Source: an uncultured Clostridia bacterium
GTDB lineage: Bacteria > Bacillota > Clostridia > TANB77 > CAG-508
Length of the DNA: 64,000 bases
Direction of reading: 5' to 3'
NCBI GenBank assembly: GCA_934120395.1
Contig: CAKOTZ010000002.1
Span: 33,645 to 97,644, forward strand
The notes beneath the pieces are model-generated. The model was not told the DNA's origin. It saw nothing but the letters and a program-made list of their open reading frames with translations, and ran no database searches. The number at the start of each line of letters is the position of its first letter. The stretch's first letter is position 1. Made by a program: the position numbers and the translations under genes. Below are positions 303 through 50,567 of the stretch, in pieces.

Positions 303-430
303 TTATCTCTCCTGTGAACTTTTTATAGTTTATTTTATAACATTTTTTTATTTTTTAAAAGCCCTTTTGCTATTTTTTTAATAATTTGTATTTCAAAAGG
401 ACTAGCAAATGCTAGTCCTTTCCCCTTGAA

Positions 431-7602: not shown

Positions 7603-8508
7603 TTATAGTAATTTTGATTTTAGTAATATTACAACCGGTCGAACATAGTTTTTGTATGTCTTCCAGCCATTACTTCCTGGGTCAGCTCCGCTTGCAACAC
7701 TTCCTTTATACTCTTGTGCTATTAAAGCTGTAACACTGTTTCCACTTACTCCATATACCTTATTGCTCCCATAATTATCATTAAGCCAATATACAGCTCC
7801 AATATTTCTATAGCTTGCTGCAACTCCTTCTGCTTCTGCTTTTGTTAAAAGTCGTCCACTACCTCCTAAGTTGCTCCCAAATGAGCTTGCTTGACTTTTT
7901 GCGTCACCCCAATTTGCACTTCCTATAGTTGTTTTACATAGCAATGTTACATTAGTTCCATCATCTCCTATTACATAAAAATCATATCCTCCAACGCTTA
8001 CTGTTTCTCCATTTGAATACGTTGTTTTTTTGTTTACCTTTAATGTATACTCAACTGACTTCTCTTTATATTCTTTTGTTCCTGCACTTGTTACTTTTAT
8101 TATAACAGTTTCATCTACATTCTTTGGTGTTACTGTTATTTTATTTCCGCTTATAGTAGCTGTTGCAATATCTTCGTTTAATGTTTTTACGCTTAAATCT
8201 CCTCCACTTATATTTTTTATTACGTCAAATGTTATTGTATTCGGATAAGTACATTCTCCACTTGTTGCTGAAAGTTCTATTTCTCCTTCTTTTCTATTTA
8301 ATAAATCAAAGTATTCTTCTACTTTATTTAACAAATTTTGTTCATTTGTTGCCTTTTCTTGATATTTATCAACACTAGACTGTGCCTTGTTAATTAATCC
8401 ATTCTCTCCTAGCAACATTGACAAACTCACTCCTGCTAGAATTAGCAAAACAATAATTGTAATTATCAATGCTACCAATGTGATTGCTTTGTTACTTTTC
8501 AAGTTCAT
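7603..8508 (-). CDS. Pilin-like (class-III-signal-like N-terminus) surface protein, short paralog 1, with Ig-like domain
   Basis: N-terminus MNLKSNKAITLVALIITIIVLLILAGVSLSMLLGENGLINKAQSS resembles a prepilin leader plus hydrophobic helix. aa 1-235 are near-identical to the gene at 10770-11645; the last ~65 aa diverge. RBS AAAGGAAAGAGG. Confidence 0.8.
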   Translation of the reverse strand: MNLKSNKAITLVALIITIIVLLILAGVSLSMLLGENGLINKAQSSVDKYQEKATNEQNLLNKVEEYFDLLNRKEGEIELSATSGECTYPNTITFDVIKNISGGDLSVKTLNEDIATATISGNKITVTPKNVDETVIIKVTSAGTKEYKEKSVEYTLKVNKKTTYSNGETVSVGGYDFYVIGDDGTNVTLLCKTTIGSANWGDAKSQASSFGSNLGGSGRLLTKAEAEGVAASYRNIGAVYWLNDNYGSNKVYGVSGNSVTALIAQEYKGSVASGADPGSNGWKTYKNYVRPVVILLKSKLL

Positions 8509-8605
8509 TTTTATACCTCTTTCCTTTGTATTTATACATAAAATTATAATTTTAGTTTATCCGTATATAATCAATATTATGTAATTCTATGTTAATTAGT
8601 TAACC

Positions 8606-8637
8606 GTATTTTATACTATTATTTTGAACTTGTAAAG
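8606..8637 (-). promoter_or_regulatory. Sigma-A-type promoter of pilin-like paralog 1
   Basis: Minus strand: TTTACA, 17 nt, TAAAAT (extended TATAAAAT). Conserved in all four modules. Confidence 0.55.
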
Positions 8638-8644
8638 TAAAATT

Positions 8645-8680
8645 GAAAAAAACTTACCTTTACATGGTAAGTTTTTTGTT
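8645..8680. terminator. Bidirectional rho-independent terminator hairpin (module A)
   Basis: gaaaaaaacttacctttacatggtaagttttttg: acttacc/ggtaagt stem, flanked by an A-run and a T-run. Confidence 0.65.
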
Positions 8681-8985
8681 CTTCGCTTTCTTTTCCGCGA
8701 TTTATCACAAATATCATTTTTTCCATTCGGTTCTTCCCACTGGAGCTGTAACATTGCTCCCGCAATTAACAGCTCTCAGCGGTCCCCACGGAAAACCTCA
8801 TTTCAAAAATATATTTGTTCTTCTCGCTAATGAGATGCTAATTTTTAAGCATTAAAAATGCCTCTTACTAGCCGTAAGAAAAATATTTGCACTCTCACGG
8901 AACGGCTAAATTTTCATATATTTTTGTGTAGGCGGTAACACGTATGAAAAAAAGCATAAAAAAATCAAGCAATTTCGTATTAATG

Positions 8986-10227
8986 CTACTTTAAATATAA
9001 TACAACTCTAAATCCAAGACCACAATCAGTTCCGGTTAAATTTCCATCACAATGCCTATAACAAACTGGATGAATATTTGATGGGTCACGGAAACTTCCC
9101 CCTCTAAAAACATGCTCTATTTCACTATTGCCAATCTCATCAGTATATTCCCAAAGATTTCCTGCTATATCATAAGTATGATACATTTCCGAAACTTTAC
9201 TTGCTCCTATTGTAAACAAAGTATATCTTTCTGTTTCACCTGTTATTTTATTTTTAAAATCTGTAATATACCATTTTGTATCATTAAGAGTTGCTGTAGC
9301 ACTTCTACCACTATACGATATTGAATTTAATCCGTAATTTCCAATTAGACCTGAATCGAACAAATCATTTTTAGAAAATATAATTCCACTTTCGTTAGTT
9401 TTTCCAATACATTTTTGTATCATTACGTCCCATTGGGTTCCTGAAATTAATTTACTTGACACTGTTTCGCTTTTTTCATACATTTTCTCTGCATTCTTTT
9501 TGCAAAATTCATAACTTATAAAATTCCAAGGTATCTTTCCTGCTTTTGATAACGGAATTCCATCAATATTATAACCCACATTACTTGTACTTAATACTGT
9601 TCCACTATATTCTATAATTTCATCAGCTAATCCAGCTTCGTATCTTCCTATATAAAAACCTCCGTACTTTTTTATTTGTTCAACTTCCTTTGTTGATATA
9701 CCACTAGTATCATAATTTCCTCCAATCATATAATTTGAACCCCAATCTGTTTTGTGATACTCTTCCTCTGTGCATGGAATCCATACAAATTGATTTCCTG
9801 CCAAGCTTGTCGTATATTCCCATGTTGTTTTGTCTATTTTTCCATCATAGGCATCAGCTGGGTCGTCTGATATGATTACTCCATTATCTAAATTTCCACC
9901 AACATAGTAAAAATTCTTAGGTACTGGTATTATATTTTTCTTATCATCAAGTACAGCATCTACTGCGTCTTTATTCCAGCCACCTGGCAAATCTACTTTT
10001 GTGCCTGGTGATTTCAGTTGTAAATCCATATAACTTTCTATACTGTTTAATAATTTTTGTTCATTTTCACTACTTTCTTTATATCTATTCACACTTGACT
10101 GTGCCTTGTTAATCAAGCCATTTTCTCCTAGTACCATTGATAAACTTACTCCTGCTAGAATTAGCAAAACAATAATTGTAATTATCAATGCTACTAATGT
10201 GATAGCTTTATTACTTTTCAAATTCAT
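8986..10227 (-). CDS. Pilin-like N-terminus protein with C-terminal FGE-sulfatase (SUMF1/DUF323)-like domain, long paralog 2
   Basis: Same N-terminus as paralog 1. C-terminus ...YDIAGNLWEYTDE...VFRGGSFRD...CYRHCDG...GLGFRVVLYLK carries FGE-sulfatase family motifs. The first ~170 aa are ~95% identical to the 12112-13368 gene. Confidence 0.8.
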   Translation of the reverse strand: MNLKSNKAITLVALIITIIVLLILAGVSLSMVLGENGLINKAQSSVNRYKESSENEQKLLNSIESYMDLQLKSPGTKVDLPGGWNKDAVDAVLDDKKNIIPVPKNFYYVGGNLDNGVIISDDPADAYDGKIDKTTWEYTTSLAGNQFVWIPCTEEEYHKTDWGSNYMIGGNYDTSGISTKEVEQIKKYGGFYIGRYEAGLADEIIEYSGTVLSTSNVGYNIDGIPLSKAGKIPWNFISYEFCKKNAEKMYEKSETVSSKLISGTQWDVMIQKCIGKTNESGIIFSKNDLFDSGLIGNYGLNSISYSGRSATATLNDTKWYITDFKNKITGETERYTLFTIGASKVSEMYHTYDIAGNLWEYTDEIGNSEIEHVFRGGSFRDPSNIHPVCYRHCDGNLTGTDCGLGFRVVLYLK

Positions 10228-10769
10228 TTTTATACCTCTTTCCTTTGTGTTTCTATATAAAATTATAATTTTAGCTTATCCATCTTTAATCAATATTATG
10301 TAATTCTATGTTAATTAGTTAACTGTATTTTATACTATTATCTTGAACTTGTAAAGTACAATTGAAAAAAACTTACCTTTACAATGGTAAGCTTTTGTTC
10401 TTCGCTTTCTTTTCCGCGATTTATCACAAATATCATTTTTTCCATTCGGTTCTTCCCACTGGAGCTGTAACATTGCTTTCGCAATTAACAGCTCTCAGCG
10501 GTCCCCACGGAAAACCTCATTTCAAAAATATATTTGTTCTTCTCGCTAATGCATTGCTAATTTTAAAACACTTGAATAAGTCTATCACTAGCCGAAGACA
10601 AAAATATATAAAATTTAAAAGTGAGTTCGACCTTGAAGCAGTTATTCACTACACAAGTTTAGAATGTGTTCAATAGAATTTGAAAAGGCTGTCTCTCAAG
10701 CGCCTTGGAGAACGGAACGGCTAAATTTTCATATATTTTTGTGTAGGCGGTAACACTGTAGTAAAAAAA
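10228..10769. repeat. Duplicated intergenic module B (carries a ~100-nt insertion relative to module A)
   Basis: Aligned with 8509-8985. The extra segment ...aaaatttaaaagtgagttcgaccttgaagcag...ctctcaagcgccttggagaacgg is shared with module C. Confidence 0.85.
10325..10357 (-). promoter_or_regulatory. Sigma-A-type promoter of pilin-like paralog 2
   Basis: Same TTTACA-N17-TAAAAT arrangement as module A. Confidence 0.5.
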
Positions 10770-11645
10770 CTACAATTTAGATTTAGAGATAACTACAACT
10801 GGGCGCACATATAATGGTCCAGTTCCACTACTCCTATCTATATAAAAATAGTTAATGAATTTATCATAATCAACATACCATGCACATTTAGAACCATTTG
10901 CATACCCGTAATAATCATTAAGCCAGTAATGTATTCCAATGTCGCGATATTTCACTGCAACCCCTTCTGCTTCTGCTTTTGTTAAAAGTCGTCCACTTCC
11001 ACCTAAGTTGCTTCCAAATGTACTTGCTTGACTTTTTGCACCGTTCCAATTATTACTACCTATAGTTGTTTTACATAGCAAGGTCACATTAGTTCCATCA
11101 TCTCCTATTACATAAAAACTATATCCTCCAACGCTTACTGTTTCTCCATTTGAATACGTTGTTTTTTTGTTTACCTTTAATGTATACTCAACTGACTTTT
11201 CTTTATATTCTTTTGTTCCTGCACTTGTTACTTTTATTATTACAGTTTCATCTACATTTTTTGGCGTTACCGTTATTGTATTTCCGCTTATAGTAGCTGT
11301 TGCAATATCTTCGTTTAATGTTTTTACGCTTAAATCTCCTCCACTTGTATTTTTTATTACATCAAATGTTATTGTATTTGGATAAGTACATTCTCCACTT
11401 GTTGCTGAAAGTTCTATTTCTCCTTCTTTTCTATTTAGTAAGTCAAAGTATTCTTCTACTTTATTTAACAAATTTTGTTCATTTGTTGCCTTTTCTTGGT
11501 ATTTATTCACACTAGACTGTACTTTGTTAATTAATCCATTCTCTCCTAGCACCATTGACAAACTCACTCCTGCTAATATTAAAAGTATAATTATTGTAAT
11601 TATCAATGCTACTAATGTGATTGCTTTGTTACTTTTCAAGTTCAT
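10770..11645 (-). CDS. Pilin-like surface protein, short paralog 3 (Ig-like domain, divergent C-terminal 65 aa)
   Basis: True start is MNLKSNKAITL at 11645, with the conserved RBS. The track's 22-codon upstream extension (MFRCEQNKTIILCRNTKERGIK) overlaps the leader and RBS. Confidence 0.8.
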   Translation of the reverse strand: MNLKSNKAITLVALIITIIILLILAGVSLSMVLGENGLINKVQSSVNKYQEKATNEQNLLNKVEEYFDLLNRKEGEIELSATSGECTYPNTITFDVIKNTSGGDLSVKTLNEDIATATISGNTITVTPKNVDETVIIKVTSAGTKEYKEKSVEYTLKVNKKTTYSNGETVSVGGYSFYVIGDDGTNVTLLCKTTIGSNNWNGAKSQASTFGSNLGGSGRLLTKAEAEGVAVKYRDIGIHYWLNDYYGYANGSKCAWYVDYDKFINYFYIDRSSGTGPLYVRPVVVISKSKL

Positions 11646-12111
11646 TTTTATACCTCTTTCCTTTGTGTTTCTACATAAAATTATAGTTTTATTTTGTTCA
11701 CATCTAAACAATATTATGTAATTCTATGTTAATCAGTTAACCGTATTTTATACTATTATCTTGAACTTGTAAAGTACAATTGAAAAAAACTCACCTTTGT
11801 ATGGTAAGCTTTTCGTTTCTTGACTTTCTTTTCCGCGATTTATCACAAATATCATTTTTTCCATTCGGTTCTTCCTAGTCGAAAGCAAAAATATATAAAA
11901 TTTAAAAGTGAGTTCGACCTTGAAGCAGTAATTCACTACACAAGTTTAGAATGTGTTCAATAAAATCTGAAAAGGCTGTCTCTCAAGCGCCTTGGAGAAC
12001 GGAACGGCTAAATTTTCATATATTTTTGTGTAGGCGGTAACACGGCAATAGACTAGAAAACACACAAATTCAATATATCAGCTTATGTTACTATTAATCT
12101 ACACATTTCCA
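11646..12111. repeat. Duplicated intergenic module C (terminator hairpin degenerate: actcacc/ggtaagc)
   Basis: Aligned with modules A and B. Lacks part of the central GC-rich segment but has the module-B insertion. Confidence 0.8.
11744..11776 (-). promoter_or_regulatory. Sigma-A-type promoter of pilin-like paralog 3
   Basis: Conserved TTTACA / TATAAAAT elements. Confidence 0.5.
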
Positions 12112-13368
12112 CTATTTTATATAAAGTGCAACTCGAAATCCGAAAGTACAAACCATATAAGAAACAGCGTAATTCCCCAAACGACAACATGCTGGACAAA
12201 TCTCTGAAACATCATAAGAAGAACCTCCTCGAAGAACCTTATAACCGCTCCCATGTCCTACTTCATCTGTCCATTCCCATACATTTCCTGCTACATCATA
12301 AACATGATATACCTCTGTGTCTTTACATGCTCCAGTTGTAAATTCTATACGTGTATTTTCCTTTATAGATGCATTTGTTTGTTTTTCTCCCCATTGCTTT
12401 ATATACCAATTATTTCCACTTTGAAATATTGTCGCTGACCTTCCTGTATATGTTAGACTATTATTATAATAATTTCCCCATTTGCTTGAATCTTTTATGT
12501 CTACTTCTGTAAATGCTAGTCCTTTTGTATTTGTTGTTCCCATAAATTTATTTAACATTACATCCCATTGCGTTCCTGTTATTAATCCACTCGTTACGCA
12601 ATCGTTATTCTCATACATTTTTTCTGCACTTGCTTTACTATTAGTATAACTAATATAACTCCATGGCAATTTTTCCGCTTTCGATTTTGGTATTCCTATT
12701 GAATTATATCCAGCAGGACTACTAACTCCATCGCTTATCTGTTCTTTTATATACTCTGCTATTCCATCTGCTAAGCCAGCTTCATATCTTGCTACATAAA
12801 AACCATTATATTTCTTTACCTTATCTATCTCAGCTTGATTTGGTCCTGTTTTGTCATATCCAACACCAACATACTTGCTTCCCCAATCTGTTTTGTGATA
12901 CTCTTCCTCTGTGCATGGTATCCATACAAATTGATTTCCTGCCAAGCTTGTCGTATATTCCCATGTTGTTTTGTCAATTTTACCATCATAGGCATCTGCT
13001 GAATTATCTGATATGATTACTCCATTATCTAAATTTCCACCTACATAATAAAAATTCTTAGGCACTGGTATTATATTTTTCTTATCATCAAGTACAGCAT
13101 CTACTGTGTCTTTATTCCAGCCATCTGGAACATCTATTTTTGTTCCTGGTGATTTTAGTTGTAAATCCATATAACTTTCTATACTGTTTAATAATTTTTG
13201 TTCATTTTCACTACTTTCTTTATATCTATTCACACTAGACTGTGCTTTGTTAATTAATCCATTCTCTCCTAGCACCATTGACAAACTCACTCCTGCTAGA
13301 ATTAGCAAAACAATAATTGTAATTATCAATGCTACTAATGTGATTGCTCTGTTACTTTTCAAGTTCAT
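12112..13368 (-). CDS. Pilin-like N-terminus protein with C-terminal FGE-sulfatase-like domain, long paralog 4
   Basis: True start is MNLKSNRAITL at 13368. C-terminus ...VYDVAGNVWEWTDE...VLRGGSSYD...FGFRVALYIK. The N-terminal ~170 aa are near-identical to paralog 2. Confidence 0.8.
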   Translation of the reverse strand: MNLKSNRAITLVALIITIIVLLILAGVSLSMVLGENGLINKAQSSVNRYKESSENEQKLLNSIESYMDLQLKSPGTKIDVPDGWNKDTVDAVLDDKKNIIPVPKNFYYVGGNLDNGVIISDNSADAYDGKIDKTTWEYTTSLAGNQFVWIPCTEEEYHKTDWGSKYVGVGYDKTGPNQAEIDKVKKYNGFYVARYEAGLADGIAEYIKEQISDGVSSPAGYNSIGIPKSKAEKLPWSYISYTNSKASAEKMYENNDCVTSGLITGTQWDVMLNKFMGTTNTKGLAFTEVDIKDSSKWGNYYNNSLTYTGRSATIFQSGNNWYIKQWGEKQTNASIKENTRIEFTTGACKDTEVYHVYDVAGNVWEWTDEVGHGSGYKVLRGGSSYDVSEICPACCRLGNYAVSYMVCTFGFRVALYIK

Positions 13369-13556
13369 TTTTATACCTCTTTCCTTTGTGTTTCTACATA
13401 AAATTACTGTTTTATTTTGTTCACATTTAAACAATATTATGTAATTCTATATTAATCAGTTAACCGTATTTTATACTATTATCTTGAACTTGTAAAGTAC
13501 AATTTAAAAAAACTTACCTTCAACATGGTAAGTTTTTTGTTGTTTTATATTTTTTC
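13369..13556. repeat. Partial module D (terminator, promoter and leader only)
   Basis: Contains the acttacc...ggtaagt hairpin (13512-13533), the TTTACA/TATAAAAT promoter (13466-13497), and the conserved leader and RBS. Confidence 0.8.
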
Positions 13557-14204
13557 CTATTCTTCATTTTCCTCAGCTTTTAACTCTAGTAGTTTTTTAT
13601 CAAAATGTAGTGCAGTTGCTGTAACTGTAAGTCCAAATACAAATAATGCAATTGGCATTGCTAAAGCATTAACTGGTATTCTAGCAATTGTATAAATACT
13701 TGCTAGCACTGCTTCTGCTGCAACAGATGTTACAATAGTCCATAATGCAACCTTCCAAAATGTTAATTTCCAATAACGAACCGCCATATATACAACAATT
13801 ATTGCAAGCACAATTAAACTTGGTACTATATAGTTTTTTACAATATTTTTTATTTCAATAGCAGGGCTTTTTATAATATTAATATCTGATACACTATATT
13901 CTAAAGAATACTTTTCATTAACCAACTGTATTAATTTTTCTAGTTGCTCATCAGATGCGGACTTTACCGTTATTGCTGCCATATCCTCAAAAATTTCTAT
14001 AGTTTGTACTCTTACATTTTCATTTTCAAATACTTGATTTGCTATTTCTTTTATTTCGTCTTTGTTTATACTTTTTCCAATATATATTTCTATTTTTTCA
14101 TTTTCACCATAAGCTAGTCCTAAATTAAAACCTTTTGTTACTCCCATAACAATTCCAAGAATGATTATTATAGTAACAATTCCATATAGTATTTTTTTGC
14201 TCAT
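13557..14204 (-). CDS. SecF-like protein-export membrane protein (short, divergent)
   Basis: 215 aa. N-terminal TM, soluble domain, then C-terminal TM bundle ...VYMAVRYWKLTFWKVALWTIV... This recalls SecF topology, and it sits beside the SecD-like gene. Confidence 0.4.
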   Translation of the reverse strand: MSKKILYGIVTIIIILGIVMGVTKGFNLGLAYGENEKIEIYIGKSINKDEIKEIANQVFENENVRVQTIEIFEDMAAITVKSASDEQLEKLIQLVNEKYSLEYSVSDINIIKSPAIEIKNIVKNYIVPSLIVLAIIVVYMAVRYWKLTFWKVALWTIVTSVAAEAVLASIYTIARIPVNALAMPIALFVFGLTVTATALHFDKKLLELKAEENEE

Positions 14205-27821: not shown

Positions 27822-27897
<76 letters not shown>

Positions 27898-50310: not shown

Positions 50311-50567
50311 AATTACTAGTGTTTTGTATTTATGATTCATAAAATAACATTTCATATAAAGCCCCGCCTTAGCCGTCTAGTAAGAATTTTTAAGGACCTG
50401 TTGTTCACAGGTGGGTGCCCTCTTAAATACTCTTGGGTTTCTTAAATAAATTCAAGCATACACGCCATATCTAAAGTTAGGCTCCCGTTTCTATCTTGTT
50501 GGTTCTAAAAATTCCATCCTGTCACGAACCATGCAGGGAAAATTAATTTCTTTACCTTTATGTTGTA
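50311..50567 (-). ncRNA. Candidate small RNA (class unknown) with its own sigma-A promoter and rho-independent terminator
   Basis: Promoter TTGAAG-N17-TAATAT at ~50575-50603 (minus strand). A GC-rich structured body at 50340-50530 has no ORF longer than 13 codons. Terminator hairpin aacactagtaa/ttactagtgtt at 50311-50337 is followed by a U-run. Confidence 0.35.

Follow-up and report, generated by a model that had tools for sequence, protein, structure and literature searches.

What is the segment of non-coding DNA that is repeated behind the genes of a tandem array in an uncultured Clostridia bacterium, and what might it do for the genes that it follows? The array lies in a 64,000-nucleotide (nt) stretch of contig CAKOTZ010000002.1, which was analysed as a whole and is called the window below. 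A first-pass annotation, made from the letters alone, had placed the segment downstream of genes 2, 3 and 4 and offered three candidates: a small RNA (sRNA) derived from the 3' untranslated region (3' UTR), a cis-acting element of the mRNA, or an insertion resembling a MITE (miniature inverted-repeat transposable element). We find that the element is a real, non-coding, structured and lineage-restricted repeat, probably one of the transcribed intergenic palindromic kind. Among the three candidates, a cis-acting mRNA element is the best fit for the hairpin that the repeat contains; the sRNA proposal fared poorly for want of any excess complementarity to the 5' regions of the family genes, and the MITE proposal, whose terminal inverted repeats were not recovered, stays a less likely alternative.

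A composite non-coding element follows three genes of the array

The segment is non-coding and structured, and we located three copies of it, behind genes 2, 3 and 4, each between the stop codon and a common terminator. Probes of 43-44 nt taken from its head and tail have exactly three matches each with zero mismatches, where shuffled sequences lead one to expect 0, and a 33-nt hairpin probe has two matches, in copies A and B only. Copy B (10409-10760, minus strand, 352 nt, behind gene 3; fold z -3.4) is the full form and contains modules S1, S2, S3, S4 and S5. The repeat had been described as three copies with an indel; the number of copies stands, but the length variation was understated. 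Copy A (8690-8945, minus strand, 256 nt, behind gene 2; GC 0.379; fold z -5.5) consists of S1, a short linker, S3, the hairpin P2 and S5 and lacks the 104-nt S2, and copy C (11828-12047, minus strand, 220 nt, behind gene 4) consists of S1, S2 and S5, the S3 spacer and P2 hairpin being deleted with a loss of ~150 nt that includes the GC-rich hairpin.

Read in the sense of the genes, the full element runs from S1 through P1, a spacer and P2 to an A/G-rich tail that continues into the terminator. S1 is a 45-nt head (GUGUUACCGCCUACAC...AGCCGUUCCG) that begins 13-68 nt past the stops of genes 2-4. P1 is a 146-nt imperfect palindrome whose AU-rich closing helix (~20 bp) surrounds the GC-richer S2; it occupies 10599-10744 (minus strand) in copy B and 11886-12031 (minus strand) in copy C, with 95% identity between the two. 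A hypervariable spacer of 37 nt separates P1 from P2. P2 is a 112-nt extended hairpin with a GNRA tip, found at 10426-10537 (minus strand; covariance-model core 10446-10518) in copy B and at 8707-8818 (minus strand; covariance-model core 8727-8799) in copy A. Its parts are an AU-rich outer helix, a short inner helix, a G-rich asymmetric internal loop, the helix CCGCUG/CAGUGG, a bulged A, the helix GAGCUGU/ACAGCUC, an apical 5-bp stem and the GNRA loop. The nested helices GAGCUGU/ACAGCUC and UUGC/GCAA that were first read from the sequence are real, and the loop that they enclose is GAAA in copy B and GGGA in copy A. At the ends proposed to form a terminal inverted repeat, CCGCGATTTATCACAAA and CCGCCTACACAAAAA, no ungapped inverted repeat was recovered; the real ones are internal and close P1 and P2. 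P1 and P2 resemble each other weakly (z 4.4). Membership of P1 in the P2 family was considered and rejected, the similarity being weak and P1 not being detected by the P2 model.

The element is 36-38% GC and its hairpin module 49% GC, compared with 20-25% for other intergenic DNA of the array, 32-33% for the array genes and 29.4% for the window. It is richer in GC than its genomic surroundings, as had been noted, although "much more" was generous.

Each copy has a stop codon before it and a terminator-like hairpin after it, and a promoter-like site follows the hairpin. The same arrangement precedes every array gene, with a conserved terminator-like hairpin (CTTACC-loop-GGTAAG and a T run) ahead of a TTTACA-17-TAAAAT promoter-like site. 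After copy A these lie at 8647-8677 and 8608-8636 (both minus strand); the equivalent hairpins are at ~10366-10397, 11785-11815 and 13507-13538, and the equivalent promoter-like sites at 10327-10355, 11745-11773 and 13468-13496. Each array unit has its own TTTACA-17-TAAAAT, a ribosome-binding site and a full open reading frame (ORF). The earlier suggestion that the element was propagated with the duplication is borne out, in that the element is part of a unit composed of promoter, gene, element and terminator. We also observed that the terminator hairpin at 13507-13538, common to all units, closes an unrelated upstream gene (13557-14204), and that the similarity of that gene's flank to an array unit begins exactly at its stop codon.

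The ORFs that overlap the element are spurious, as first judged, with no Pfam match and no similarity to window or family proteins. A coding relic or small protein was considered in its own right and rejected: tblastn with 120 family proteins and all window ORFs returned only self-overlapping ORFs, Pfam returned nothing, and the indels are not multiples of three. That the element might be the degraded 3' end of a longer ancestral ORF had been named among the outcomes that would refute the proposal; no translated similarity to family or other proteins was found.

Hairpins of the P2 type occur at unrelated loci

P2 folds with z -6.7 to -7.1 in the array, and its core pattern matches two unrelated metagenome contigs, L024 and L025 (L numbers denote the contigs compared with the window). 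The P2-type hairpin of L024 occupies the space between gap and pgk; that of L025 immediately follows the stop of one ORF, with an ABC-2 permease gene 60 nt further on. At both loci the hairpin is co-oriented with the genes. In L024 the gap stop and the P2-type hairpin are separated by a GC-rich terminator-like hairpin (GGTCCGG...CCGGACC; 380-425, minus strand) with a U-rich tail.

The three lineages have one extended-hairpin architecture, with fold z of -4.7 and -9.5 in the outside homologues and -7.1 in the array. An invariant 40-nt core comprises the G(U/G)GGGGA loop and CCGCUG-A-GAGCUGU ... ACAGCUC-CAGUGG with its G.U pair. Around this core the sequence of the outer helix varies between lineages and its pairing is kept, as is that of the inner 5-bp helix (GGUUU/GAACC, ACUUU/AAAGU, GGC/GCC) and of the apical stem (AUUGC-GAAA-GCAAU, AGCA-UGAAA-UGCU, ACAGUGC-GUUA-GCACUGU). 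In the core alignment 97.9% of cells are paired and six pairs have changed on both sides, a result reached by 0 of 500 shuffles, and slid controls are 28-46% paired. The first-pass annotation had made its proposal hinge on homologues and covariation; both are present, as hairpin homologues in two unrelated contigs and as substitutions on both sides of 6 base pairs. P2 and the unrelated loci also have the left flank UAGCG(C)GA in common.

Several features favour the sense strand. P2-type hairpins are 9-12 kcal/mol more stable in the sense than in the antisense strand in all three lineages (minimum free energy in copy B, -43.4 versus -31.4 kcal/mol), and each of the loop variants GAAA, GGAA and GGGA keeps the GNRA form. 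One-sided stem substitutions in P1 and P2 create G.U pairs six or seven times and A.C once, counts that are small. One pair of P1 has undergone compensatory change twice independently, from UA to CG and from UA to AU.

From these alignments, the P2 hairpin belongs to a wider, apparently undescribed family that lies between genes in other gut-type Clostridia. No Rfam 15 model accounts for it. A scan of the whole window at the gathering threshold returned only 6S RNA and tRNA, region 8600-12150 at E up to 10 gave two chance matches outside or unrelated to the element, and L024 and L025 at E up to 1 gave nothing at the hairpin. As for other RNA genes, the window carries a 6S RNA at 50357-50542 (minus strand; full-length Rfam match, 98 bits) and a tRNA-Thr (anticodon CGU) at 27822-27897 (plus strand). 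The core string does not occur in a full-text literature search or in the first 200 of 408 supplement files of a human-microbiome structured-RNA catalogue.

S1, the P1 palindrome and the variable spacer appear to be specific to this species. The S1 head pattern has 0 matches in Genome Taxonomy Database (GTDB) species genomes and in Joint Genome Institute (JGI) metagenomes and is absent from viral contigs. A protein-guided scan of GTDB species genomes found one distant locus, in a metagenome-assembled genome of a 'Clostridia bacterium', that is without the element, and more distant arrays (42% protein identity, another species) lack it as well. In one such array (42% identity), a 645-nt spacer (L022, 9353-9998) has its own terminators and a run of GA dinucleotides and no detectable element homologue; its 13-nt match to S5, ATTTGTGATAAAT, is probably due to chance. 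A phage or plasmid origin was considered and rejected, since neither the full element nor the core has a blastn match and pattern scans of viral contigs gave only chance matches to an unrelated phage gene.

A bulged hairpin with a GNRA tip also brings group II introns to mind. On that explanation, the repeats are intron remnants in which a domain 5/6 motif has been multiplied together with genes, as for Clostridium tetani C.te.I1. The 33-nt string GAGCUGU-UA-AUUGC-GNRA-GCAAU-GU-UACAGCUC does resemble domain 5, with an AGC triad, an asymmetric internal loop and a GNRA tip, and in C. tetani domain 5/6 motifs, repeated hairpins of ~34 nt with a GNRA tip, likewise lie beside surface-protein genes in a low-GC clostridial genome (PMC3919590). 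Unlike those repeats, the element matches neither Intron_gpII nor any other group II model of Rfam at E up to 10, including models for domains 1-4. It has no domain 6, no 5' intron part and no exon fusion or downstream exon, a terminator following instead, and it begins with GUGUU rather than GUGYG and measures only 220-352 nt. The helix continues for 6 bp below the would-be domain 5, and the L025 homologue is a perfect 15-bp stem with a GUUA loop and no bulge. We consider an intron remnant refuted by the model misses, the extended helix and the bulge-less homologue, and give it scarcely any credence.

The array genes and the retroelement explanation

The window matches human-gut metagenome contigs L001 and L002 at 99.5-99.9% identity, of which L001 is 99.85% identical to it. 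The four genes of the array, all on the minus strand, span 7603-13368. Gene 1 (7603-8508, minus strand, 301 aa), the last of the array, has a pilin-like N-terminal signal and a DUF1566-like C-terminus and no element behind it. Gene 3 (10770-11645, minus strand, 291 aa) is its paralogue, also with a DUF1566-like C-terminus. Gene 2 (8986-10227, minus strand, 413 aa) has a C-type-lectin/FGE-sulfatase-like C-terminus, and its paralogue gene 4 (12112-13368, minus strand, 418 aa) has a Pfam FGE-sulfatase match at residues 325-415. The C-terminal domains of genes 2-4 are thus of two unrelated types, and all four proteins start with MNLKSNKAITLVALIITIIVLLILAGVS, a pilin-like signal, by which the family is predicted to consist of surface or secreted proteins. 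In L001 a G-to-T change at window position 11414 accompanies a gene 3 that is called in two pieces, of 77 and 105 aa, and that may be a pseudogene there.

Both the FGE-sulfatase/C-type-lectin-like ends of genes 2 and 4 and the DUF1566-like ends of genes 1 and 3 are folds typically diversified by diversity-generating retroelements (DGRs). This suggests that the hairpin could be a DGR target-site hairpin, acting in trans on the C-type-lectin-like C-termini. The likeness extends to the loop, which has 4 nt, is read on the sense strand and lies downstream of genes whose variable domains are of the C-type-lectin type; its variants GAAA, GGAA and GGGA agree with the GRNA consensus of DGR hairpins on that strand (PMC3240598). 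However, distance and stem composition are wrong for a DGR target, as the hairpin lies ~150-280 nt from the stop rather than 4-34 bp and its loop-adjacent stem is AU-rich rather than 7-10 bp of GC-rich sequence. Neither a YxDD reverse transcriptase motif nor a template repeat of the gene 3' ends was found in the 64 kb. The differences between strains are neither adenine-specific nor confined to the C-terminus, and homologues of the hairpin lie beside gap/pgk and ABC transporter genes. We conclude that the DGR explanation is largely refuted and hardly credible.

Copies spread within the species and decay by deletion

Contrary to the first description, the element is not confined to this array. 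Gene 2 homologues are numerous, and among the contigs that carry them (L003-L005, L007, L008, L010 and L011-L013) the same element is found in seven or more arrays of this gene family, dispersed over unrelated chromosomal sites. In total, ~17 non-redundant copies or fragments were found in ~244 kb of one uncultured gut species. Every copy has the orientation of the genes, and all sit behind a family gene except one (L004, 8609-8855), which lies ahead of its array's first gene and has a 25-nt 5' flank identical to that of the copy behind that gene. Across the ~244 kb, all copies found adjoin a family gene, and the P2 covariance model found no further copy in the 317 kb scanned.

Many of these copies are incomplete. 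P2 is intact in about six of the ~17, S2 is absent from several, and some array spacers have no element or a different short module. Deletions end at the short direct repeats GAAGAAC, ATATTT and AAATATAT, and other copies join half of P2 to half of the terminator. P2 and the S5 tail are bracketed by the direct repeats GCGAGAAGAAC and GCGAAGAAC, and copies without P2 join exactly there, a junction that fits either target-site duplication or deletion between direct repeats. At L007 7990-8060 and L012 14975-15020 most of the element has given way to another short 3'-UTR module (AATGCAGTNGGAGNGGACTGAAGGAG...), which in L007 is joined to the first 26 nt of S1 at a AAATATAT junction. These observations show that copies spread by duplication of the unit, are homogenised by patchy gene conversion and decay through deletion between short direct repeats.

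The part retained most consistently is the S5 tail with its terminator, which occurs alone upstream of one family gene (L005, 15079-15111). This retention would suit a trans-acting sRNA released from the 3' UTR, either from the S5 tail and terminator or from P2, that regulates, for example, the paralogous family genes, and the terminator has the expected U tail after an A/G-rich single-stranded stretch. In a crude test, however, duplex energies against the 5' regions of the four array genes equalled those of shuffled sequences (z -0.4 to +0.8). The variable spacer has no significant complement, as a guide would require, in the 244 kb, and no convincing internal promoter was seen. A trans-acting sRNA is in our view very unlikely.

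The distribution also bears on the main rival to a cis-acting RNA, a selfish palindrome. In this explanation P2, perhaps with P1 as a diverged relative, is a non-autonomous element that inserted once in an ancestral 3' flank and was copied passively, being tolerated in transcribed spacers and having no dedicated host function. It could be of the kind known as repetitive extragenic palindromic (REP) sequences and their bacterial interspersed mosaic elements (BIMEs), enterobacterial repetitive intergenic consensus (ERIC) sequences, BOX, MITEs or IS200/IS605-derived palindrome-associated transposable elements (PATEs). REP/BIME and ERIC sequences are mosaics with internal deletion and insertion variants, and their mRNA stem-loops can alter the stability of the upstream message. 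An overview is given in PMC3184786, with background in PMC3049150.

The likeness is considerable. The REP/BIME and ERIC sequences (the latter also called intergenic repeat units, IRUs) of enterobacteria are imperfect palindromes in transcribed intergenic or 3'-UTR positions, and ERIC is ~127 bp long, compared with 112-145 nt for P2. The element has the stable imperfect-palindrome stem-loop in a spacer, with modular variants, by which REP, ERIC and BOX sequences are recognised, its transcription being predicted. In pneumococcal BOX (boxA-boxB(n)-boxC), modules can be absent or duplicated without disrupting the remaining fold, and the repeat is co-transcribed with its neighbours (PMC3049150). 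Like BOX, the element is a composite modular repeat of 100-350 nt with a predicted tight RNA structure (PMC3049150). A selfish origin also draws support from the long imperfect palindromes with AT-rich arms, from the P2 core at unrelated intergenic sites in other organisms, from the GCGAGAAGAAC/GCGAAGAAC direct repeats around P2 with P2-less copies resembling an empty site, from deletion and insertion variants that are modular as in ERIC and BOX (for BOX, PMC3049150) and from the weak P1-P2 similarity (z 4.4).

The strand-specific features of P2 can be read in the same way. Hairpins that Y1 transposases of the IS200/IS605 and REP-associated tyrosine transposase (RAYT) type read as single-stranded DNA typically have a strand-specific bulge and a G.T mismatch. 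P2 has both. We know of no RAYT or transposase link for the element.

The differences are as marked. REP/BIME and ERIC sequences are unrelated to the element and occur genome-wide in tens to hundreds of copies and in both orientations, whereas the element is restricted to one gene family and one orientation. Many copies at unrelated intergenic sites of one genome, as expected of an interspersed repeat, were not seen in the metagenome contigs compared, ~244 kb of the species. BOX is an interspersed MITE-like repeat whose terminal inverted repeats pair; the element has no such repeats and is tied to one gene family. Further points against a selfish palindrome are the absence of copies away from family genes (~244 kb of the species; 317 kb with the model), the single orientation and relative position of all copies, the lack of convincing terminal inverted repeats and a conserved interior with arms that vary between lineages, the reverse of the terminal repeats that transposases recognise. 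The common left flank UAGCG(C)GA speaks against random target duplication, no transposase was identified nearby, and phages, plasmids and viral contigs hold no matches. We regard a selfish palindrome as the leading alternative, albeit an unlikely one.

Near-identical strains differ within the arrays

Comparison of closely related contigs locates most differences inside the arrays. Between the window and L001, 20 of 22 differences over 13.2 kb fall in copy B, 18 of them in its hypervariable spacer S3var (10551-10599, minus strand) and one in the GNRA loop. Between the window and L002, eight of nine differences fall within 52 nt of the N-terminal coding region of gene 2, and all 38 differences between L012 and L013 lie inside the array. 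The flanks of L003 are 99-100% identical to the window, and within the array a promoter patch is 73-83% identical, a gene-body patch is 79% identical and two whole units are missing. L011 and L012 (8501-11300) are free of differences over a compared stretch of 1.7 kb that ends ~200 nt inside the first array gene; beyond that point identity is 61-95% through the gene body, and the type of element changes. The locus looks like a replaced cassette, for which no closer donor was found among the loci compared.

Dense patches of differences between strains that are otherwise 99.6-100% identical were recorded at window 10551-10599 and 10096-10147, at 11822-12158 in L012/L013, and at 13375-13570 and 12475-12574 in L003 versus the window; they are located in the spacer of copy B, in N-terminal coding regions and in a promoter region. 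Whole units have been gained and lost between strains. This pattern is a signature of gene conversion and unequal crossing-over among repeated units, with the caveat that chimeric metagenome assemblies can be patchy in the same way. Among copies, S1, S4 and S5 have 96-100% identity, which would fit constraint on them; S2 has 90-99%, the promoter with the N-terminal region ~91% and the spacer ~72%.

These data raise the possibility that the element is a downstream homology block for cassette exchange, its palindromes serving as recombinogenic DNA that diversifies a surface-protein repertoire. In Borrelia hermsii the downstream homology sequence (DHS) is a 214-bp extragenic block at a variable distance from the stop codon, with a 31-bp inverted repeat that is required for switching (PMC6011951). 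As with the DHS and upstream homology sequence (UHS) of Borrelia and the Sma/Cla repeat of Neisseria, a conserved extragenic block of ~200 bp with an inverted repeat follows each variable surface-protein gene; as in Borrelia, it has a partner homology region upstream, across the start codon, and gene conversion between copies (PMC6011951). Here, too, variable gene bodies lie between two conserved blocks, the promoter and N-terminal region on the upstream side and the element on the downstream side, which would supply crossover points for gene conversion and unequal crossing-over. S1 lies 13-68 nt after the stops of genes with unrelated C-termini and yet is at least 96% identical. The clustering of differences in arrays (L011/L012, L003/window, L012/L013, window/L001), the gain and loss of whole units and the B. 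hermsii precedent (PMC6011951) fit the same picture.

However, the Borrelia and Neisseria systems move silent cassettes to a single expression site, whereas each copy here has a promoter-like site and a full-length ORF, which argues against a silent archive feeding one site. Any repeated sequence would recombine alike, and we mapped no crossover within the element. The element is absent from some array spacers, chimeric assembly of the metagenomes could account for the patchy differences, and the P2 homologues at gap/pgk and in an ABC transporter operon would be left unexplained. We consider it improbable that the element acts as a homology block. An integron attC site was also considered and seems unlikely: the boundaries have no GTTRRRY core, the cassettes carry promoters, and no integrase lies beside the arrays.

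A cis-acting RNA hairpin is the favoured explanation

From these comparisons we favour, with slightly less than even confidence, the explanation that the element is a co-transcribed 3'-UTR or intercistronic RNA hairpin that acts in cis on the mRNA and is carried by cassette duplication and gene conversion. The element is a composite non-coding 3'-UTR repeat within the duplication unit of promoter, gene, element and terminator. It has two parts, one specific to the species (S1, the P1 palindrome and the variable spacer) and the other, P2, drawn from the wider hairpin family. In the arrays it would be transcribed as the tail of the upstream mRNA, and at the two outside loci as an intercistronic segment. 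P2 would fold in the sense RNA and act in cis, presumably as a protein-recognised stem-loop that sets the stability or processing of the mRNA 3' end in the manner of REP, ERIC or BOX stem-loops. We infer this role for P2 from its position, covariation, invariant asymmetric core and strand bias.

Several points weigh against a cis-acting RNA. Transcription through the element is predicted solely from scans for consensus promoters and terminators, and the hairpin of L024 might lie at the 5' end of a separate pgk transcript and not in a read-through spacer. Covariation rests on only three independent lineages, palindromes can gain compensatory changes through template switching without selection, and the high identity of S1, S4 and S5 could stem from gene conversion rather than selection. 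The genes, the elements and the leading strand are co-oriented in the window, as judged from GC skew, and because of this the strand bias cannot separate a role in RNA from one in single-stranded DNA. About 11 of 17 copies lack P2 or keep only part of it, and several have no S2, so each module is dispensable for its adjacent gene. Finally, no known RNA family matches.

The cis-acting explanation can be taken one step further, to a possibility that we raise tentatively and think rather less than likely: P2 may represent a new class of conserved structured RNA of uncultured low-GC gut Clostridia, a 110-145-nt hairpin whose core would be read by a dedicated protein controlling processing or stability and which would, in this species, have been co-opted by the 3' UTRs of surface-protein genes that recombine rapidly. 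With a similarly cautious degree of belief, we suggest that the core of such an RNA might consist of the G(U/G)GGGGA loop, the G.U-containing helix and the bulged A.

Implications for the gene family and its host

If the element were merely a hitch-hiking palindrome, it would be ordinary. If it is a functional mRNA element, it would give uncultured gut Firmicutes an RNA family that is unannotated and has no entry in Rfam 15, and the modular copies behind paralogous genes would provide a natural series with and without each part that can be compared directly. The surrounding system may outweigh the element in importance. Seven or more dispersed arrays hold surface-protein genes that have lectin-like variable C-termini and promoters of their own. 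Conserved blocks flank the genes on the 5' and 3' sides, and nearly all differences between near-identical strains fall within the arrays, which looks like a gene-conversion-driven surface-variation system in a commensal.

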